15,118 nt of DNA from a virus (IMGVR_UViG_2740892439_000020:1-15118), one strand, 5' to 3'; numbered from the stretch's first letter, positions 1 through 10,286 are shown. Numbers and translations: made by a program. The notes: generated from the sequence alone by a model not told the origin.

Positions 1-192
1 TCAGGAGCATTTCTGATTAACGCCACCGTTAAGAATCCACCCTTCAACAGCTTCACGAAGGTATGATTTGGGGTGGGTTCTGACTGGCTTCGGAAATCCG
101 TGGCGTTTGGTATAGTTCCAGATTGTCTGACGTGATGAAACACCGAGCTTGTTCATCACTTCTTTCTCAGGAATCAGGCTGGTATCGGTCAT
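1..192 (-). CDS. xis: excisionase-like small DNA-binding protein (Xis/AlpA-type HTH)
   Basis: 63-aa ORF; ATG at 190-192 with GGAGA 6 nt upstream; basic HTH-like sequence; sits at the distal end of the leftward early operon where lambdoid phages carry xis; its stop codon is the first triplet of the window, so int would lie outside. Confidence 0.55.
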   Translation of the reverse strand: MTDTSLIPEKEVMNKLGVSSRQTIWNYTKRHGFPKPVRTHPKSYLREAVEGWILNGGVNQKCS

Positions 193-206
193 CTTAATTC
201 TCCAGG

Positions 207-231
207 CAAAAATAAACCGCCATATAGCGGC
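207..231 (-). terminator. hairpin + T-tract element (minus-strand RNA GCCGC-UAUAUG-GCGGU then UUAUUUUUG) just upstream of the xis RBS
   Basis: 4-5 bp GC stem with 6-nt loop followed by T-run on minus strand; member of a repeated element family (see findings). Confidence 0.3.
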
Positions 232-271
232 TCTATCAGATATGAACAGGCCTCATCGAGTGTGAGGCGGG

Positions 272-616
272 TTAGTCCTTGCGTAGTTCGCTGATTCTTC
301 TGTAAGTCTCTGGTGCTTTGTTCCCGTACGTCTTCATTTCAGACTTCAACAGAGCAACGAGTGAATCCCATTCGTTGAGGATTCCTTTGAATGCCGGAAC
401 GCGCTTTGCAACCTTGTCGAATGAATCTCTGATTTCTGGAATCTGCTCAACAAGTGCAACGCATCGCCGGAAGTCTGCTGCGTCATGTGGAGCGCCGAAG
501 CTATGACCATAGATATTCTTTTTCAGGCCACATGCGATTGAGGCAAGAGTTGCGCTACTGATGCCAACATCGCCAGTCGATTGCCATTTCAAAACCTTCA
601 TAGCCAAATCTGACAT
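272..616 (-). CDS. hypothetical phage protein (114 aa)
   Basis: ORF in track 272..643; start moved to ATG 614-616 (MSDLAMKV...) because it has GGAGA 6 nt upstream, whereas the first 9 codons of the longer ORF are a translation of the terminator-like hairpin. Confidence 0.5.
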   Translation of the reverse strand: MSDLAMKVLKWQSTGDVGISSATLASIACGLKKNIYGHSFGAPHDAADFRRCVALVEQIPEIRDSFDKVAKRVPAFKGILNEWDSLVALLKSEMKTYGNKAPETYRRISELRKD

Positions 617-627
617 TTCTTGTCTCC

Positions 628-651
628 AATAAAAAACCGCCATCAGGCGGC
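628..651 (-). terminator. hairpin + T-tract element (minus-strand RNA GCCGCC-UGAU-GGCGG then UUUUUUAUU)
   Basis: perfect 5-bp GC stem CCGCC/GGCGG (637-650), 4-nt loop, U-run; lies at the junction of two small genes. Confidence 0.4.
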
Positions 652-810
652 TTGGTGTTCTTTCAGTTCTTCAATTCGAATATTGGTTATGTCTGCATGT
701 GCTGTCTGCGCCCATAGCATCCAGTGGTCATAGCAGTCATTGATGTTCTCTGCTTCGATAACTCTGTTGAATGGCTCTCCATTCCATTCACCTGTGACTC
801 GAAAGTGCAT
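643..810 (-). CDS. hypothetical small protein (55 aa, MHFRVTGEWNGEPFNRVIEAENINDCYDHW...)
   Basis: ORF not in the six-frame track (under 60 aa); ATG 808-810 with GGAGA 6 nt upstream; TGA at 643-645. Confidence 0.4.
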   Translation of the reverse strand: MHFRVTGEWNGEPFNRVIEAENINDCYDHWMLWAQTAHADITNIRIEELKEHQAA

Positions 811-823
811 TTATCATCTCCAT

Positions 824-846
824 AAAACAAAACCCGCCGTAGCGAG
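824..846 (-). terminator. putative rho-independent terminator
   Basis: minus-strand stem CUCGC/GCGGG (one G-U) followed by UUUUGUUUUAU, immediately upstream of the RBS of the 643..810 gene. Confidence 0.35.
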
Positions 847-850
847 TTCA

Positions 851-878
851 GATAAAAGAAATCCCCGCGAGTGCGAGG
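851..878 (-). terminator. putative rho-independent terminator downstream of the 899..1180 gene
   Basis: minus-strand 6-bp GC-rich stem (CCUCGC/GCGGGG, one G-U) with 4-nt loop followed by AUUUCUUUUAUC. Confidence 0.4.
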
Positions 879-898
879 ATAGTTACTTGTTCATATTA

Positions 899-1180
899 TT
901 AATCGTCAATGTATTTTGAGCATTGTGGGCAATCATCAATCCCACAATACGATTCATATGCATCCTTTATTGCGTCGCGGGCTTCAGTAAGAGTATTGAA
1001 TAAGTTGCAGCTATTATCTTTTTGATATAGGTAAGTTCCTAATTTATAAGCAGAAGAAGCATCATTTCCGCTGTCTAAAATTACATCGTTATGGATTCTG
1101 CACCTTGCAAGAACTCCTGATCCCATAAGGGTCTGCATAGCCCATTGCTCTTGATCTTCACACAAATCATGAATGCTCAT
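899..1180 (-). CDS. small Cys-containing protein (93 aa), possibly Ea8.5-like putative zinc-binding protein
   Basis: ORF 899..1198 in track; start moved to ATG 1178-1180 (MSIHDLCED...) which has GAGAGGTG upstream; C-terminal CGIDDCPQC motif; coding region is visibly AT-rich versus flanks; position corresponds to the ea8.5 slot of lambda. Confidence 0.45.
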   Translation of the reverse strand: MSIHDLCEDQEQWAMQTLMGSGVLARCRIHNDVILDSGNDASSAYKLGTYLYQKDNSCNLFNTLTEARDAIKDAYESYCGIDDCPQCSKYIDD

Positions 1181-1294
1181 TTCAACACCTCTCTTCACGT
1201 TTCACACACGTTAAGATTAACAGTGTTTTTACATGCTTTGGAAGATTTATTTTATAAAAACTCTTTTAATACAAATAGATATAATAGTTCACTA

Positions 1295-2065
1295 TTATAG
1301 CTCCTTTAATCGAGGCGGTTCTGGTAGAGGCATCCAGTGGGTTACCTCTTTGAGATACAGGTCTTCGCCATCACCGTCATCCCAAGTTGGATTGCCATCA
1401 TTAAACCAGTCGCCATATACGCCGACCTGAGTGTTGGGGATGTTTGGTGGGTAGTTGTTTTTAAAGTCAGCTGCTAACACATAGCATTGTCGCTCTCCCA
1501 TTTCTGGCATTCGCTCACTACAGCTTATCCAACCATCCGGAGTTACCGGAGAATTGCCAGACAGCTCGTTCAACTTGTAAGTTTGGCTTACAGGTTCGGC
1601 TTCCAGTTCTGCAATGCGCTTCTCTGCGGCTTCCAGCTTCTCGCGCATATCATCAACGTACTCGACCAGAGATCCGCCAGCAGGAATTTCGCACTCCTCG
1701 ACCAGTTGGAAGTAGATATCAGCTGCGGACCGTGTGTTGCTATGCCTAGCGTCGCCCATCTCACCTTCACGAAGAGCATCGCGTTCTGCGGTAAGATTGG
1801 CTATTTTGCTGTCTTTGCCTTCCAGCTCAACACGCAGTTTCCCTACCGTTAGCGCAATATCCTCGTTCTCCTGATCGCGGAGTTTGATGTATTGCTGGTT
1901 TCTTTCCCGTTCATCCAACAATGCCAGCGCGATATCTGGCGAAAAGTGCTTCATAAAATCGTTAAGCGCATTAATTCGCTGATCGAAAGGCATTACAGGT
2001 GCTTCACCAGCAATTTTTGTTTTTTCAGCGATTTCACGAAGCTTTTGATAATCAATCTTGCTCAC
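1295..2065 (-). CDS. Ead/Ea22-like protein with predicted coiled-coil middle and C-terminal DUF551-like domain
   Basis: 256-aa ORF, GTG start at 2063-2065; central heptad-like charged region (LEAAEKRIAELEAE); C-terminal W...RMPE...VTHWMPLPEPP signature typical of DUF551. Confidence 0.55.
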   Translation of the reverse strand: MSKIDYQKLREIAEKTKIAGEAPVMPFDQRINALNDFMKHFSPDIALALLDERERNQQYIKLRDQENEDIALTVGKLRVELEGKDSKIANLTAERDALREGEMGDARHSNTRSAADIYFQLVEECEIPAGGSLVEYVDDMREKLEAAEKRIAELEAEPVSQTYKLNELSGNSPVTPDGWISCSERMPEMGERQCYVLAADFKNNYPPNIPNTQVGVYGDWFNDGNPTWDDGDGEDLYLKEVTHWMPLPEPPRLKEL

Positions 2066-2306
2066 TGGTTGCCCCCTGCTTTTCTGCCTTCAACACCATG
2101 TGCGAACCATCATCCAGCTCCCACGCGATCTCACCACCTTCAGCCATGACCAGTCGCCACACCAATTGAGCAGCCTCATTGGTAACATCACGACCTGGAT
2201 CATTGCCAACGCGCATACGCCCACCTTCAACATCGCGCATTTTTGCCAGCATGATAGTTTTTGATAGCGGTGAAAAACCAAGCTGTAGTCGTGCTGAATT
2301 ACTCAC
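2052..2306 (-). CDS. hypothetical small protein (84 aa)
   Basis: ORF 2052..2333 in track; start moved to GTG 2304-2306, which has a strong AAAGGAGG 6 nt upstream; overlaps the next gene start by 14 nt. Confidence 0.45.
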
Positions 2307-2469
2307 TGGTTGCCTCCTTTGCGCACATCGCATTCAGATATTTGTTTTTATTCACTGATGGAAAAGAATTTCTCTTAAGCAATTCCTCTCTCGATGGCAT
2401 TGGCTTTACGCGTTGGCGAATAATCATTTCTGCCGGAAGAATGCCGGGATTGTATGCAAGTCCTCTCAT
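2299..2469 (-). CDS. hypothetical small protein (56 aa)
   Basis: part of track ORF 2299..2502; ATG 2467-2469 (MRGLAYNP...) has GAGGAA 7 nt upstream; alternative start at 2484-2486 overlaps the upstream gene. Confidence 0.35.
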
Positions 2470-2479
2470 GGTAAATTCC

Positions 2480-2776
2480 TCAGTCATTACTGATAGCGCC
2501 ATAGCGTGAGCGGTAATTACGCAGGCGCGGGTCGATATATTCAGGGAAGTGGGTATATGTGGCTTTGCGGAATGGTCGGATTGATGTTTCGTTTATTCGG
2601 TCTTTTTCCTGTTTTTCTGCGAGTTGTATATCGCGTCGGTACTTCCGTTCTTCTTTTGTTTCTGGTGGCAGAGCAAGAAACGCGTCGAGATTATTCTTGA
2701 TATTTTCCAGCACCTCCGATATGGAATTGCCGGAACAGCGGCGCGGGTCGTCCGCACCATATAGAGGCGCTGGCAT
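2480..2776 (-). CDS. hypothetical phage protein (98 aa)
   Basis: ATG 2774-2776 with AGGAGA 6 nt upstream; starts 15 nt downstream of the exonuclease stop. Confidence 0.5.
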
Positions 2777-2792
2777 GGTTTTCTCCTGTTGA

Positions 2793-3341
2793 TTATTTAG
2801 CTAACTTTTTCCAGATCGCTGAAACGTATTTGGCTTGGTGAATGGCATCATCAAGCGCGTTGTGGCGAGTTCCTTTGAATGGCATATCTCGCTTAGGGTC
2901 GAATCCTATTACCTTCCCAAGTTCGACGATTGTTCTTACGTCGCGGTCATTCCACCACTGCCACGGAACTGGCTGCCCTGTCAGCGAATAACTGTTTCGG
3001 AGAATAACGCAGTCAAATGATGCTCCATTCCCCCAAACCTGAACGAATTTGTGGTTAGCGTTCTTTATGATGAATTCAGATAACCATGAAAGAGCCGTTG
3101 AAAGCTCCTGAGTGTTGCTGGTTAGCGATTTTCTGGCTTCTTCACTCTGTTCCAGCCACCATAAAATCGTTGAAGCGTCAGGACGCGCCCGATATCGCAT
3201 TGATGACTCAAGCGAGATATTTACCGAGAACTCTTCTCCTGTTTCTCCGGTATTCGGGTCAAAGAATACCGCCCCAATAGAAATAACTGGCGCATATGGC
3301 CCGTTGCCCATTGTTTCAAGGTCAACCATTAAGTGATTCAT
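2793..3341 (-). CDS. DEDDh-family (DnaQ-like) 3'-5' exonuclease
   Basis: 182 aa; Exo I motif MVDLET, Exo II WGNGASFDCVIL, Exo III HNALDDAIHQAKY; AAGGA RBS. Confidence 0.75.
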   Translation of the reverse strand: MNHLMVDLETMGNGPYAPVISIGAVFFDPNTGETGEEFSVNISLESSMRYRARPDASTILWWLEQSEEARKSLTSNTQELSTALSWLSEFIIKNANHKFVQVWGNGASFDCVILRNSYSLTGQPVPWQWWNDRDVRTIVELGKVIGFDPKRDMPFKGTRHNALDDAIHQAKYVSAIWKKLAK

Positions 3342-3349
3342 GTAAGTCC

Positions 3350-3856
3350 TTAAATTGCGTGAATAGCGTGACGAGGGAAGGGGAGAGTTACTGGTGCAAA
3401 GGGTATATCGTCGTCAAAATCCATCGGTGGTTCGTTGTGTTGTGCTGGTGATGATTGCTGCTGTGGCTTCTGTGATTGCCTGCTGGCTGCTTGTTGTTTG
3501 CTGTCGCCAATTCCGCCAAGCATTTGCATCACGCCATTAATTCCGACATGAACCTCGGTTGTGTAACGGTCTTGCCCTGACTGGTCTTTCCACTTTCTGG
3601 TTCTCAGCATTCCCTCGAAATAAATCTGATCACCTTTTTTCACATACTGCCCCACGACCTCAGCCAGTTTCCCGGATACAGCAACACGATGCCATTCAGT
3701 CAATTCCTTTTGCTCGCCAGTATTTTTATCTCGCCATTGTTCTGACGTGGCTATTGTCAGGTTAGCGAACGCTGTACCTGATGGTGAGTATCGAACTTCC
3801 GGGTCTTGTCCTACCCGACCAAGGATAATCACCTTATTTACGCCTCTGCTTGCCAT
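3350..3856 (-). CDS. ssb: single-stranded DNA-binding protein (SSB)
   Basis: 168 aa; N-terminal OB-fold region nearly colinear with E. coli SSB ([33 protein letters not shown]), Gly/Gln-rich linker, acidic C-terminal tail DFDDDIPF. Confidence 0.9.
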
Positions 3857-4564
3857 TTATGCCGCCTGTTTTAGTTCGTTAACTCTGATGTTCATTACCT
3901 GAACGCATTTAGCCTGCGCCTCCTCATTGCCAGCCATTAATTGCCAGTCACGCTGATAACGCTCGATGAGTTTTTTCTTGTCAGTTTCTGTTGACGCATA
4001 ATCGCTGAAGTCTTTCAGGATTTGTTCGCAGTCAACCGATGGAGATTTCTGGTTGGTATTTTCTGGTGATGGTTTGTTATCTGATGCTGGTATTGCCCAT
4101 CCCGGCAGCGATGGAGGGAGCCAGTAAAATCCTGTTCCATCCTTCAGTTTTGCCCTGTGCCACCCCTGCTTTTTATCGAGAGATGTTTGTGCGAAACCTT
4201 CCTCAAGGTTATACAGATACCGACCGATTCCCCACTGAACGGCAGCGCGCTTCATTGCACCGGAACGACCACCTTTGACGGCTTCTACCTGCGTGTTTTC
4301 AGCAGCATCCCATTTGGTTACCCATTCGGAATCAATCTTTATTGATATGCCGCATTCAACGCCTCCGTTGTTGGGAATATCGCGGTATTCATTGCGCCAT
4401 CCTGCTTTTCCGCAAACATCGTCCAGGCGTTTCATGATTGCCCGGTTCGTGACATAAGCCAGCACCATAGCCCACACTTTGCCATCGCGTGTTTTACCGC
4501 TTTGCTGTATTCGCCATTCGATATCTTCAGGGCCGAATGGCTCATCGAATTTATTCAAATCCAT
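3857..4564 (-). CDS. single-strand annealing protein (Rad52/Erf-like recombinase)
   Basis: 235 aa; directly abuts ssb (TAA then ATG); N-terminal annealase-like region with RAAVQWGIGRYLYNL motif; GAGGTGA RBS; sub-family assignment uncertain. Confidence 0.65.
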   Translation of the reverse strand: MDLNKFDEPFGPEDIEWRIQQSGKTRDGKVWAMVLAYVTNRAIMKRLDDVCGKAGWRNEYRDIPNNGGVECGISIKIDSEWVTKWDAAENTQVEAVKGGRSGAMKRAAVQWGIGRYLYNLEEGFAQTSLDKKQGWHRAKLKDGTGFYWLPPSLPGWAIPASDNKPSPENTNQKSPSVDCEQILKDFSDYASTETDKKKLIERYQRDWQLMAGNEEAQAKCVQVMNIRVNELKQAA

Positions 4565-4651
4565 AATTCACCTCAGAATGGACATGGCCCAAGGAAATAA
4601 CGCTGATTTAATACTTCAGTCTTTGCCGCATTTAAAAATACGCGAACACCT

Positions 4652-4822
4652 TCACGATCTCCCTTCTGGCGATACATTAACGCCTGCTGCGTGTACATGC
4701 GTCTCTGTAACTTGCTCTCCTTCACTGTGGTTGCGAGTGACATGAATATCTCCTTCGTTACCGATTAATTCTTTCATCTGACGAATGAATTCTTCGTCTG
4801 ACCAGTTATCTGTAAAACTCAT
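4652..4822 (-). CDS. hypothetical small acidic protein in the kil position (56 aa)
   Basis: ATG 4820-4822 overlaps the cIII-like stop as ATGA; part of track ORF 4652..4852. Confidence 0.4.
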   Translation of the reverse strand: MSFTDNWSDEEFIRQMKELIGNEGDIHVTRNHSEGEQVTETHVHAAGVNVSPEGRS

Positions 4823-4989
4823 GGACGGCCTTGTTGTTTCAAAATATCCCAAAGCTTTTCGAGCAAACTTTTCATTCTTGGTTGTTTAAAGTCTGCTCCG
4901 GTTAAAATGTTTTTTCGTGAATGCTGTACCGATAAAATCGGGTTGAAAGGGCGAACCGATGCCGCCCCTGCAATAGCGAACTGTTGCAT
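4819..4989 (-). CDS. cIII: CIII-like protein (FtsH/HflB inhibitor family), 56 aa
   Basis: ATG 4987-4989 with AAGGAG 7 nt upstream; N-terminal MQQFAIAG and C-terminal SLLEKLWDILKQQGRP resemble lambda CIII (MQYAIAG...ESLLER...RLIDILNQPGVP); the track ORF extends further 5' without an RBS. Confidence 0.55.
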   Translation of the reverse strand: MQQFAIAGAASVRPFNPILSVQHSRKNILTGADFKQPRMKSLLEKLWDILKQQGRP

Positions 4990-5051
4990 AGGATGCTCCT
5001 TCTGTTTGATTACATAACGAAAACGCCTCGAGTGAAGCGTTATTGGTATGC

Positions 5052-5079
5052 ATATAAAAAATCCCTCACACTGGAGGGC
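5052..5079 (-). terminator. putative rho-independent terminator (tL-type) upstream of cIII
   Basis: minus-strand stem CCCUC/GAGGG with 6-nt loop followed by AUUUUUUAUAU. Confidence 0.45.
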
Positions 5080-5141
5080 AAAGAAGATTTCCAATAATCA
5101 GAACAAGTCGGCTCCTGTTTAGTTACGAGCGACATTGCTCC

Positions 5142-5169
5142 GTGTATTCACTCGTTGGAATGAATACAC
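5142..5169. repeat. perfect 9-bp inverted repeat GTGTATTCA-N10-TGAATACAC
   Basis: read directly from sequence; intergenic between the membrane protein gene and cIII; no U-tract on the minus (transcribed) strand. Confidence 0.6.
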
Positions 5170-5196
5170 AGTGCAGTGTTTATTCTGTTGTTTATG

Positions 5197-5224
5197 CCAA
5201 AAATAAAGGACGATTATGCGGCCT
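5197..5224 (-). terminator. weak hairpin + UUUAUUUUUG element just after the membrane protein gene stop
   Basis: imperfect stem on minus strand followed by the same T-tail decamer seen at 207-216 and 5719-5728. Confidence 0.25.
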
Positions 5225-5228
5225 GAAA

Positions 5229-5678
5229 TTACTTAACCAATGATGCTGCATATTCGATAAGATAAAGTTTTGGGGCCAGCCAAATTTTTAACCAAGTCAT
5301 ATTGGTTACTACACCAATAATAAAAATCCCCCACAGAGTCAAAACTCCAACCAATGGCATGATAAGAAGGTTAATATCTCCTTTGCTATCCCAAACCATT
5401 GTCGGCCTGTATTTGGGATTTCCCCTCTCCCATGAGTATCCTTCATCACCGATTTTACCTGTCTCAACTCTTTGGCACTGCTTCTTCATAAACCAGAAAA
5501 CCAGTGGGATTGTTAGAATGGCTATTAATGTTTTAATCAGACTGTCAACCATATTCCATAGCAGCAACTGATGAACAACATCAGGAATCTGTGCTTGGCT
5601 AAATGAAACAGCAGCATCTATTCCATTGCTGGCTTTTTGCAGTAGTTCTACGAGAATCTTGTTTGCTTGTTCTTCCAT
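5229..5678 (-). CDS. predicted inner-membrane protein with two transmembrane helices (149 aa); possible superinfection-exclusion-type protein
   Basis: hydrophobic segments LIKTLIAILTIPLVFWFM and LLIMPLVGVLTLWGIFIIGVV; ATG 5676-5678 with AAGGTGA upstream; sits between N and cIII; function is inference only. Confidence 0.5.
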   Translation of the reverse strand: MEEQANKILVELLQKASNGIDAAVSFSQAQIPDVVHQLLLWNMVDSLIKTLIAILTIPLVFWFMKKQCQRVETGKIGDEGYSWERGNPKYRPTMVWDSKGDINLLIMPLVGVLTLWGIFIIGVVTNMTWLKIWLAPKLYLIEYAASLVK

Positions 5679-5718
5679 ATATCACCTTGATTGTAATAAG
5701 CATGAAATTATTTACGGA

Positions 5719-5746
5719 CAAAAATAAAGGCCACCATCAGGCAGCC
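5719..5746 (-). terminator. hairpin + T-tract element (tL1-type) between N region and membrane protein gene
   Basis: minus-strand 7-bp stem GGCUGCC/GGUGGCC (two G-U), loop UGAU, then CUUUAUUUUUG. Confidence 0.4.
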
Positions 5747-5817
5747 TTGTAGTTCTGTTTACCAAGTTCTCTGGCAATCATTGTCGTCGTTCGTATTGTC
5801 CACACCATTGATTTTTA

Positions 5818-5904
5818 TCAATAGTCGTAGTCATACGGATAGTCCTGGTATTGTTCCATCACATCCTGAGGATGCTCTTCGAACTCATCAAATTCTTCTT
5901 CCAT
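5818..5904 (-). CDS. 28-aa highly acidic mini-protein (MEEEFDEFEEHPQDVMEQYQDYPYDYDY)
   Basis: not in ORF track; ATG 5902-5904 with GAGGTGA 3-5 nt upstream, immediately after the N stop codon. Confidence 0.3.
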   Translation of the reverse strand: MEEEFDEFEEHPQDVMEQYQDYPYDYDY

Positions 5905-5912
5905 ATCTCACC

Positions 5913-6212
5913 TCAAATAAGTGGTTTACTGCCTAATTTCATTTTCTGGCGACCAACACAAGTCACACCCATTTCACTGCGTGGCTTGCGGTAGTAAATA
6001 CGATTCTGTTTACGCTCGATTTCTTCTGCCTTCTTGCAGCGAAGGCTTCCGAGTGATGCTGCTTTGTCTGCTCTGACGCAACCAGAGAGCTTTAGCGCAA
6101 TTTTTCGCGCCAGTGCTTCATTACTGCGTCGCTCGGCAATAAGTTCTGCTCTGCGAGCTTTGTAGCGGCTTTTTGCCGTACCTTTGGATTCTTTCCAGAC
6201 AATGGTTACCAT
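5913..6212 (-). CDS. N: antitermination protein N (phi21-type arginine-rich motif)
   Basis: ATG 6210-6212 with AAAGGAG 6 nt upstream (track ORF starts at 6242 without an RBS); N-terminal ARM GTAKSRYKARRAELIAERR as I recall for phage 21 N; first gene downstream of pL/nutL. Confidence 0.7.
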   Translation of the reverse strand: MVTIVWKESKGTAKSRYKARRAELIAERRSNEALARKIALKLSGCVRADKAASLGSLRCKKAEEIERKQNRIYYRKPRSEMGVTCVGRQKMKLGSKPLI

Positions 6213-6322
6213 GATGGTCTCCTTTAAGTGGCTTTGGCGCATGACGCGTCGAGGTGCTTATCTTCTCGATCGCTGTCTTGCAGCTGCAATTCGCGCCATC
6301 CCCAAAACCACTCAAGTTCTGG

Positions 6323-6363
6323 TCTCAACGGTTAGGTTGAGAGTCCGTCGATGTTAAAGAGCC
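6323..6363 (-). promoter_or_regulatory. nutL: nutL site: boxA (GCTCTTTAACA) and boxB hairpin (UCUCAAC-CUAACC-GUUGAGA)
   Basis: boxA consensus-like 11-mer at 6352-6362 on minus strand, then a perfect 7-bp stem hairpin at 6323-6342, between pL and N. Confidence 0.65.
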
Positions 6364-6404
6364 TGCCAATCTGTTCCGTTTGGCTTCCAGCGTCCTGCTG
6401 ATGG

Positions 6405-6464
6405 CTTAAATTTAAGACTTCTTAATTTATTGGTCAAGTGCATTTTTGAAGAAAACTTAATTTT
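6405..6464 (-). promoter_or_regulatory. pL promoter with OL operators
   Basis: minus-strand -35 TTGACC (6432-6437), 17-nt spacer, -10 TAAATT (6409-6414); P22-type operator-like 18-mers with TTAAG/CTTAA half-sites at 6410-6427 and 6445-6462; 12-bp perfect palindrome CTTAAATTTAAG at 6405-6416. Confidence 0.5.
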
Positions 6465-6500
6465 ATGGGCGTGAATTTAGTTTGTCTTTGATTTTTAACG

Positions 6501-6528
6501 GGAAATAAAAAAGGGGCGAAAGCCCTTA
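6501..6528 (-). terminator. putative terminator immediately after the repressor gene
   Basis: minus-strand GGGC-UUUC-GCCC hairpin followed by CUUUUUUAUUU, starting at the repressor stop codon. Confidence 0.4.
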
Positions 6529-7176
6529 AGGAAGGTTTGCTAGCTTGGCATCAACGACAACGCCAATGATTTTACAGTTCCCATTGATTTCAATCATTGG
6601 GTATTGTGGATTGAGTGGTTTCAGGAATTTTCTACCGGCATCAATAACTAACTTTTTGAATGTCGCCTCGTTTTCTCCTTCAAGTTTGGCGACTACCAGC
6701 TTTCCATTACGTGGTTCGACTTCTGGGTCGACGAGAATAATCATCCCCTCAGGAATACTCAGTCCTGCCGGGGCAGTCATTGAATCGCCTTTAACGTCGA
6801 GCCAAAAAGAGTCTTCAGAACAATCTACCGTTGTGTCGTACCAGTTATCTATTGCACGCCTATGATATGGCTCTACAGCTTCCATCCAACATCCTGCGCT
6901 TACCCAACTAATTAGAGGATATGAACCTCTTGGATCATGCCTGCTGTGATAGGCAATGTTTGAAAGACTATCCTCTCCTTTCAACAGGTAATCAGGGGAG
7001 CACTGCAAAGCCTTGGCTAAGGCCAATAGGTTTTCGCCATTGGGCTCAGTTTCAGATCGCTCCCATTGGGAAATAGCAACATTAGACACGCCAACCATCT
7101 TGCCAAGGGCAGCCTGCCTAATCTTGAGTTCTTTTCTGCGAGCGCGAATACGCTCACCCATCAGTTGTGTATTCAT
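6526..7176 (-). CDS. c2: prophage repressor, C2/CI type (N-terminal HTH, C-terminal LexA-like S24 self-cleaving domain), P22 C2-like
   Basis: 216 aa; N-terminal domain (MNTQLMGERIRARR..QAALGKMVGVSNVAISQWERSE) matches my recollection of the P22 C2 DNA-binding domain; C-terminal Ser-Lys peptidase region (GDSMTAPAG...KLVVAKL...TFKKL); divergent from cro across an operator region. Confidence 0.85.
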   Translation of the reverse strand: MNTQLMGERIRARRKELKIRQAALGKMVGVSNVAISQWERSETEPNGENLLALAKALQCSPDYLLKGEDSLSNIAYHSRHDPRGSYPLISWVSAGCWMEAVEPYHRRAIDNWYDTTVDCSEDSFWLDVKGDSMTAPAGLSIPEGMIILVDPEVEPRNGKLVVAKLEGENEATFKKLVIDAGRKFLKPLNPQYPMIEINGNCKIIGVVVDAKLANLP

Positions 7177-10253: not shown

Positions 10254-10286
10254 AGGCCTGCTGGTAATCGCAGGCCTTTTTATTTG
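10254..10286 (+). terminator. rho-independent terminator (tR2-like) after the helicase gene
   Basis: perfect 8-bp stem AGGCCTGC/GCAGGCCT with 8-nt loop followed by TTTTTATTT. Confidence 0.65.

Follow-up and report, generated by a model that had tools for sequence, protein, structure and literature searches.

Conserved boundary or linker sequences of lambdoid phages were reportedly described by Susskind and Botstein and, for HK620, by Clark et al. in 2001, and are said to have been proposed as recombination sites. The lambda terminators tL2a and tL2b are said to have been mapped originally by Luk and Szybalski in the early 1980s. The first of them, tL2a, is the 3' end of an abundant RNA of the lytic cycle, which was detected by northern blot and RIL-seq. 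This RNA is PreS/LPR1, an Hfq-bound small RNA (sRNA) encoded between ral and ea10, which is about 88 nucleotides (nt) long, has a processed form of 68 nt, and activates the translation of dnaN (bioRxiv 10.1101/2024.10.31.621285). Extra DNA in the form of an independent transcription unit with its own promoter and terminator is called a moron (Hendrix and colleagues; reviewed in PMC3594210). T4-type phages contain PeSLs, i.e., stem-loop terminators between small non-essential genes that are fused to a strong sigma-70 early promoter, and recombination shuffles these genes (Arbiol et al. 2010, PMC2839356). The general properties of antitermination by N have been described (PMC4496710). Here, a stretch of 15,118 nt of viral DNA (IMGVR_UViG_2740892439_000020:1-15118, called the window) was analyzed. 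It is a segment of a mosaic lambdoid phage or prophage, and the subject is a series of hairpins with U-rich tails on the minus strand of its leftward early operon, the pL operon, between positions 207 and 5748.

The best explanation, in which we have good confidence, is that these elements are terminators that are read through only with N, that they bound cassettes of accessory genes, and that cassettes have been exchanged at them. A strict terminator rule (at least seven pairs and at least four G-C pairs) was applied to the region 1-6300 and to 300 shuffles. Six sites were found on the sense strand, versus 0.17 +/- 0.40 in the shuffles, none of which reached six, and one site was found on the antisense strand. 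All six sense sites have 4-nt loops, and their stems are stable and rich in G+C (-9.9 to -13.9 kcal/mol). The U-run follows directly 3' of the stem on the sense strand, and the stems lie just past stop codons. A weaker hairpin at 5063-5078 comes in addition to these six strong sites of the pL operon. A looser fold-based predictor gave 30 minus-strand matches; it over-called loose hairpins and was set aside for the strict rule. A previous annotation of the window by a model, the sequence-only reading, had called this set of structures unusually dense. The excess over chance was borne out, but 60 non-redundant related loci have a mean of 3.15 sense sites per about 6.1 kilobases (range 0-6), versus 0.73 antisense sites, i.e., a 4.3-fold sense bias. 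The terminator density of the window is at the top of this normal range and is typical of lambdoid pL operons.

The first intrinsic terminator past N is the hairpin of element E4 (5719..5748, stem 5727-5748), which has the form AAGGCUGCC-UGAU-GGUGGCCUU followed by UUAUUUUUG, folds with -13.9 kcal/mol, and lies at the 3' end of a ral pseudogene. Next on the transcript is E3 (5197-5224), where AGGCCGCAUAAUCGUCC is followed by UUUAUUUUUG. It has no meaningful fold (-4.3 kcal/mol, z-score -0.1), in agreement with the weak stem noted before. Two hairpins just upstream of cIII are the counterparts of tL2a (5053..5078, stem 5063-5078 of 5 base pairs (bp), -7.8 kcal/mol) and of tL2b (5012..5041, stem 5022-5041, AACGCUUC-ACUC-GAGGCGUU plus a U-run, -9.9 kcal/mol). 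A tandem pair spanning 820..880 sits between ea8.5 and an orf55-like gene (643-810); its first hairpin is AUCCUCGC-ACUC-GCGGGGAU at 861-880 (-12.1 kcal/mol, z-score -4.8), and its second is GAACUCGC-UACG-GCGGGUUU at 830-849 (-11.0 kcal/mol). The loop of E2 (626..653, stem 634-653, AAGCCGCC-UGAU-GGCGGUUU plus a U-run, -13.4 kcal/mol, z-score -3.4) holds the UGA stop codon of the orf55-like gene. Directly after the stop codon of gene 272-616 follows a linker hairpin without a U-run (248..266, GCCUCA-CACUCGA-UGAGGC). The last element is E1 (207..233, stem 214-233), GAGCCGC-UAUAUG-GCGGUUU with the tail UUUAUUUUUG, which forms 8 pairs (-10.8 kcal/mol) and ends 14 nt ahead of the xis start codon. 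It precedes the window-type xis in all of 17 contigs of IMG/VR. The coordinates and sequences that had been given for the hairpins and tails were correct. Folding of the minus-strand RNA, which had been suggested as a check, yielded seven stable hairpins; E3 was not stable, and 5022-5041 had been overlooked.

With the exception of 214-233, all intact hairpins have a counterpart in lambda. Hairpin 5727-5748 corresponds to lambda 34080-34095 at the end of ral, again with the stop codon in the loop, 5063-5078 to lambda 33931-33952 ahead of ea10, and 5022-5041 to lambda 33493-33512 ahead of cIII. The tandem pair 830-849 and 861-880 corresponds to lambda 29305-29356 between ea8.5 and orf55, and 634-653 to lambda 29109-29128 at the end of orf55, just ahead of xis. 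The lambda records J02459 and NC_001416 have no annotated terminator features. In the HK620 record NC_002730.1, tL1, tL2A-D, and tL3 are annotated in the pL operon. By homology and synteny, tL2A (gccctccaatgtgagggccttttt) is the counterpart of 5063-5078, and tL2B (aacgcttcacgagaggcgtttt) is the counterpart of 5022-5041. In lambda the two are separated by ea10, whereas in the window, which does not have ea10, they are adjacent, as in HK620. Since 5063-5078 is the counterpart of tL2a, at least one of the listed elements has published evidence from lambda for an RNA 3' end. N-conditional terminators were one of the two alternatives of the sequence-only reading. The look of intrinsic terminators and the match of two of them to annotated HK620 terminators favor this alternative at the level of sequence; the idea itself is not new.

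Natural variation was used as a further source of evidence. Nine loci have a compensatory change from C-G to U-A in hairpin 5022-5041 (the tL2b family), one stem pair of the 830-849 family is U-A, U-G, or C-G depending on the relative, and in one E4 variant two wobble pairs have become Watson-Crick pairs. When up to 4 mismatches were allowed, the variants retrieved for E2 and 5063-5078 included non-homologous or register-shifted hairpins, which made the pair counts for these two unreliable, and only clean families were used.

The operon has the signals that N would require. A predicted pL (TTGACC, 6437-6432) is followed on the minus strand by a nutL site of the phage 21 type with boxA (GGCTCTTTAACA, 6363-6352) and boxB (TCAAC-CTAACC-GTTGA, 6340-6325), and by the N gene (5913-6242); the labels boxA and boxB follow the nut site of phage 21. 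By sequence, both the N gene and the nut site lie between pL and the first terminator, as expected for an N-antiterminated operon. From folds, homology, and synteny we infer that the elements act as sense-strand terminators of the Rho-independent type in the pL operon of this mosaic lambdoid phage, whose N and nutL are of the phage 21 type. Without N, pL transcripts would stop at 5727-5748 or, failing that, at the next hairpins, which would leave the accessory and recombination genes, cIII/kil, and xis unexpressed. With N at nutL, RNA polymerase would pass all terminators. Each terminator would close a cassette of accessory genes, and 5063-5078 would in addition form the 3' end of PreS. The guards of cIII and kil would be the counterparts of tL2a and tL2b, and those of xis and the accessory genes at the left end would be the tandem pair at 830-880, followed by 634-653 and 214-233. 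The cassettes would have been assembled by recombination in short sequences that are shared by terminators. The tail repeats are shared, in this explanation, because accessory genes were spliced in at terminator signals.

Two cassettes fit this explanation. The elements had been proposed to be one repeat family. Instead, two pairs share descent, 214-233 and 634-653 as well as 5197-5224 and 5719-5748, and separately inherited lambda-type terminators come in addition. The first pair encloses a cassette at 234..625 with gene 272-616 on the minus strand; relatives whose E2 hairpin directly adjoins xis lack this cassette. The lambda homology at E2 ends at 627. The hairpins 214-233 and 634-653 share AGCCGC...ATGGCGGTTT, and 214-233 is, judged by its sequence, a paralogue of 634-653; gene 272-616 lies between these two hairpins, which have ATGGCGGTTT in common. 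As had been claimed, xis has a GGAGA-N6-ATG start (GGAGAATTAAGATG), and so does the gene that begins at 616 (GGAGACAAGAAATG). In six fetched loci (L015, L056, L068, L098, L108, and L192) gene 272-616 is absent, and a single hybrid E2/E1 hairpin is found, which has the orf55 (E2) side through ATGGCGGTTT and the xis (E1) side from there on. Thus, the two configurations differ by one recombination event within the 10 bp of shared 3'-arm sequence. The linker hairpin 248-266 is kept ahead of E1, with at least three unrelated gene ends upstream.

The second cassette is a 509-bp insert relative to lambda (5210..5718), which carries gene 5229-5678 on the minus strand and has a GC content of 38.7%, versus 45.4% for the operon. 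It is bracketed by a 12-bp direct repeat, caaaaataaagg, at 5198-5209 and 5719-5730. In lambda, the ral hairpin and the tail CCTTTATTTTTG run straight into the PreS region. An alignment of lambda, CUS-3, and the window revealed that the window holds this junction twice, i.e., at 5719-5730 after the ral hairpin and at 5198-5209 ahead of the PreS region. In CUS-3 and many metagenomic relatives E3 is intact (form AGGCCGCAUAGUCGGCCU, hairpin AGGCCGCATAGTCGGCCT and then the same tail). In the window it has two substitutions, and the change from CGGCC to CGTCC destroys the stem. E3 is, therefore, a decayed form of the inserted gene's terminator, and it would be backed up by the counterparts of tL2a and tL2b about 120-190 nt downstream on the transcript. 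The gene with its own terminator would have been joined in at CCTTTATTTTTG, which would have duplicated the tail. Judged by this sequence, the repeated plus-strand decamer CAAAAATAAA (207-216, 5198-5207, and 5719-5728, as had been stated) is largely a scar of cassette insertion and not an independent motif. A consensus scan found no promoter-like site upstream of 5678 or of 616, and by eye only a -10-like TACAAT without a matching -35 was seen. Gene 5229-5678 probably depends on pL and N.

The same hairpins are found between different modules. The exact 20-mer of E2 is present in more than 120 IMG/VR contigs, where it is joined to several downstream modules; the partners to which the exact 634-653 hairpin joins orf55 include the lambda xis, the window gene, the window xis, and an att/promoter region of the P22 type, among others. 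Upstream of hairpin 861-880, at least six clearly unrelated sequences were found, and its flanks form 12 x 4 clusters (upstream x downstream). The respective numbers are 5 x 11 for E4, 6 x 4 for 5022-5041, and 7 x 8, with 20 combinations, for the linker hairpin 248-266, and the intact form of E3 follows at least three unrelated genes. Like the described boundary sequences of lambdoid phages, the hairpins of the window are thus short conserved sequences between otherwise unrelated modules. The 'bsq5' feature that is annotated as a boundary sequence in CUS-3 is different: it spans 502 bp between N and cI and is not located at a terminator hairpin. In the related genomes, where a search for the decamer plus hairpin at module boundaries had been suggested, the hairpins were found beside varied modules.

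For the analysis of breakpoints, 80 loci were fetched via the N protein, i.e., independently of the hairpins. The sequence around hairpins makes up 7.1% of the total and contains 27.1% of the 831 alignment ends, a 3.8-fold enrichment, and gene interiors are depleted (0.59-fold). The counts include kindred genomes, and because these loci are not phylogenetically independent the enrichments are descriptive and not tests. This is the first of several points that speak against the proposed explanation. Gene junctions without hairpins are also enriched for breakpoints (2.2-fold), and breakpoints also cluster inside the ea22-like and N genes, which are internally mosaic; hairpins are therefore not required for exchange. 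Among unique sequences, singleton variants that break a pair are as common as those that keep it. Two elements are weakened in the window (5197-5224 has lost its stem, 5063-5078 has only 5 bp), and in lambda two pairs of the ral hairpin are broken, so that it may be a poor, probably weak, terminator there. In addition, in the literature consulted, direct evidence for an RNA 3' end comes only from lambda tL2a. The most promiscuous junction of the operon is an overlap of ribosome-binding site and start codon at 2301-2320, with 13 x 13 flank clusters. Because its flanks are the most diverse, it can be regarded as a hairpin-free 'boundary sequence'. The second alternative of the sequence-only reading, a repeated element that marks module junctions, thus holds only in part: hairpins recur beside different genes and attract breakpoints, but they are not specific markers, because hairpin-free junctions are hot as well and 2301-2320 is the most promiscuous site. 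Both alternatives had been established ideas before, and both were partly supported.

A direct repeat, ctcactggttgcc, was noticed at two consecutive gene junctions, 2062-2074 and 2303-2315. On the minus strand it reads GGCAACCAGTGAG and comprises a ribosome-binding site and a GTG start.

These results could also be obtained if the units were mainly DNA elements, namely conserved short linkers for homologous or short-homology swaps of cassettes, and if termination were incidental. We regard this as unlikely. Identical hairpins after unrelated genes (861-880, intact E3, E4, and 5022-5041, see above), the hybrid E2/E1 hairpin, and the 12-bp repeat around the insert would be expected, as would the gene remnants that were kept beside hairpins (the 3' end of ral in the window, that of orf55 in HK620), and lambda Red promotes recombination between diverged sequences (PMC2327257). 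A DNA linker would, however, not need a one-sided T-run, and yet the sites have the strong sense-strand bias described above. Furthermore, substitutions keep the RNA pairing, including G-U pairs that are mismatches on the other strand, lambda tL2a demonstrably makes an RNA 3' end, and hairpin-free junctions exchange as much or more.

The sRNA region led to a second alternative. The window contains a PreS/LPR1 counterpart of about 88 nt on the minus strand (5055..5142, by homology to lambda, the 5' end is approximate). Positions 5051-5209 are 97.5% identical to lambda 33920-34080 over 161 nt, and thus exceed the identity of at least 92% that was used for PreS/LPR1 conservation (bioRxiv 10.1101/2024.10.31.621285). 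Unlike in lambda, ea10 is lacking here, and one more gene cassette is present upstream. Upstream of 5063-5078, a segment of 149 nt folds with -44.9 kcal/mol (z-score -4.1), and it is found in 331 phage records, in 328 of them with at least 95% identity. In the fetched loci the upstream flank forms 1 cluster and the downstream flank forms 9. Directly 5' of the PreS counterpart lies a long conserved hairpin (5136..5175, minus strand) of 14 bp, extendable to 17, whose G-U pairs work on the minus strand only and whose one mismatch is mended by two natural variants; it may be a processing structure that frees the sRNA from the pL transcript. A search of Rfam, at the gathering threshold for the whole window and with E values up to 1 for 1-6600, gave only a spurious miRNA match, and PreS evidently has no family in the library searched. 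At 5062-5063, in the terminator of PreS, the window has an A right after GAGGG where nearly all relatives have a C, and the stem is shortened from 6-8 bp to 5 bp.

In this second alternative, the hairpins would mainly be 3'-end or processing structures of RNAs, which stabilize upstream messages or define 3'-derived sRNAs like PreS, without gating transcription. It would fit that PreS ends at tL2a in lambda, that nearly all records conserve the upstream segment at 95-99%, and that E4 was retained though ral is a pseudogene. This possibility is nevertheless somewhat less probable than that of a DNA linker: of the seven intact hairpins, six lie directly between coding sequence and the next ribosome-binding site, only the remaining one is preceded by a non-coding segment that could be the body of an sRNA, and no Rfam family matched in 1-6600. 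A 3'-end role and termination are compatible and do not exclude each other.

The weakest alternative, a chance likeness of T-rich tails or a small mobile repeat of the REP/MITE type, is very improbable: T-rich terminator tails do look alike, and with one mismatch allowed the excess of the decamer is weak and fades (6 versus 2.6), but 3 exact copies were found versus 0.09 +/- 0.30 expected (200 dinucleotide shuffles, none of which reached 3), two of these are explained by a homologous duplication and the third belongs to the tail of E1, which is a paralogue of E2, and the copies have a single orientation, are tied to their own flanks, lack terminal inverted repeats, and are not dispersed elsewhere in the window. 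A mobile repeat was rejected on the grounds that all copies are on the sense strand and each is tied to specific flanks.

With N-dependent terminators that bound cassettes as the preferred explanation, the known systems can be compared. Gene 5229-5678 resembles a moron in that it is extra relative to lambda, has a lower GC content, and in relatives has its own terminator, which is decayed in the window; it has no promoter-like site of its own, and membership was rejected, as the consensus scan found no promoter. As in PeSLs, stem-loop terminators are repeated among small genes of a plastic region, but the promoter part is missing and the phage group is different; the consensus scan found no sigma-70 promoter at the stem-loops, and membership was rejected as well. 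The window cassettes are, therefore, because promoters are lacking, neither morons nor PeSLs in the strict sense. A wider proposal would be that units of terminator and U-run are preferred crossover points for the exchange of accessory genes in lambdoid early operons, i.e., a promoter-less counterpart of PeSLs at which the phage's own annealing recombinase acts. The hybrid E2/E1 hairpin and the 12-bp repeat would fit recombination within the hairpins. The events are non-independent and hairpin-free junctions are hot spots too, and we put the wider proposal forward tentatively, as rather doubtful. If it were true, one signal of 25-40 nt would stop transcription, set RNA 3' ends as for PreS, and serve as the 'linker' of the modular theory.

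Multiple pL terminators, terminator-bearing cassettes, boundary sequences, and recombination at stem-loops are all established, and the features of the window are ordinary and largely known. What is new, to a modest degree, is that two cassette joins at shared terminator sequence were reconstructed explicitly. These are concrete, alignable lambdoid cases of cassettes that were joined at 10-14 bp of shared terminator sequence, and they bear on the question of whether phage mosaicism arises at short conserved linkers or by random joining and subsequent selection. They do not settle this question, because the controls indicate that terminators are one of several kinds of shared junctions. For annotation, the counterparts of tL2a, tL2b, and PreS, the ral pseudogene, and two cassettes with limits that can be read from duplicated terminator sequence were gained.

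The remaining operon is also of the lambdoid type, and all of its genes are on the minus strand. It starts next to a P22/21-type repressor gene (6526-7176). N is followed by orf28, the broken ral, gene 5229-5678 for a predicted membrane protein of 149 amino acids (phrog_3054), cIII (4819-4989), and a recombination block with Erf, SSB, exonuclease, and Abc2. At the left end are an Ea22/DUF551 gene, ea8.5 (899-1180), the lambda-type orf55-like gene, gene 272-616 (114 amino acids, phrog_1229, no assigned function), and an AlpA-type xis (1-192). Of the first 7.5 kilobases, only 32-59% is covered by each of the closest phage records (mEp235, N7, CUS-3, and lambda imm21), in several pieces. Among 5,426 complete genomes of E. 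coli, 2,775 and 2,278 contain parts of the segments 1-900 and 5000-5950, respectively. Only 155 and 54 of them have the full arrangements with at least 80% coverage, and no copy was identical to the window (best about 97-98%).

Several minor observations were made. The ral pseudogene (5737-5834, minus strand) starts with ATG at 5834, and its frame reads MTTTIDKNQWCGQYERRQ and then stop. The 3' end of ral (…TIRTTTMIARELGKQNYKAA) persists in another frame, BLAST coordinates indicate a deletion of about 104 nt in comparison with lambda ral, and the terminator behind the pseudogene is intact. Upstream of the low-GC gene ea8.5 (38.3% GC) lies a 114-nt AT-rich spacer (1181-1294) with a perfect TATAAT and no evident -35, and the comparison of the 80 loci revealed no homology breakpoints in this spacer. 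The C-terminus of Erf (…VMNIRVNELKQAA; 3857-3900) resembles that of the orf55-like protein (…ITNIRIEELKEHQAA; 643-690), both on the minus strand. No hairpin follows erf despite this likeness, which may be due to chance or to an old exchange of 3' ends.

The hairpins themselves share short motifs. CACUCG is present at the top of the stem, as an ACUC loop closed by C-G, in three of them (257-262, 868-873, and 5029-5034, minus strand), and the hexamer CACTCG is mildly over-represented in the window (11 versus 5.8). In two others, the upstream gene ends with Ala-Ala codons and a stop codon that is contained in a UGAU loop.

In HK620 (locus L222, 10650-10715) the cII-binding TTGC-N6-TTGC of the integrase promoter begins right after the U-run of the 634-653 counterpart, and only the last approximately 45 nt of orf55 are retained ahead of that hairpin. 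In lambda, the counterpart likewise directly precedes the cII-binding TTGC repeats of the integrase promoter, and in mEp235 (locus L002, 1440-1480) TTGC-N6-TTGC follows right after the U-run of a different terminator hairpin. The TTGC repeats abut the U-run in HK620 and mEp235, and thus the terminator and the cII-dependent promoter form one compact unit.

Lastly, two hairpins outside of the pL operon were seen. The first, AAGGGC-UUUC-GCCCCUU plus a U-run at the end of cI (6511-6527, minus strand), overlaps the cI stop codon, and its position is that of HK620 tIMM. The second, AGGCCTGCTGGTAATCGCAGGCCT followed by TTTTATTT (10254-10277, plus strand), lies after the helicase gene at the position of HK620 tR2, and its stem scores on the minus strand, too.

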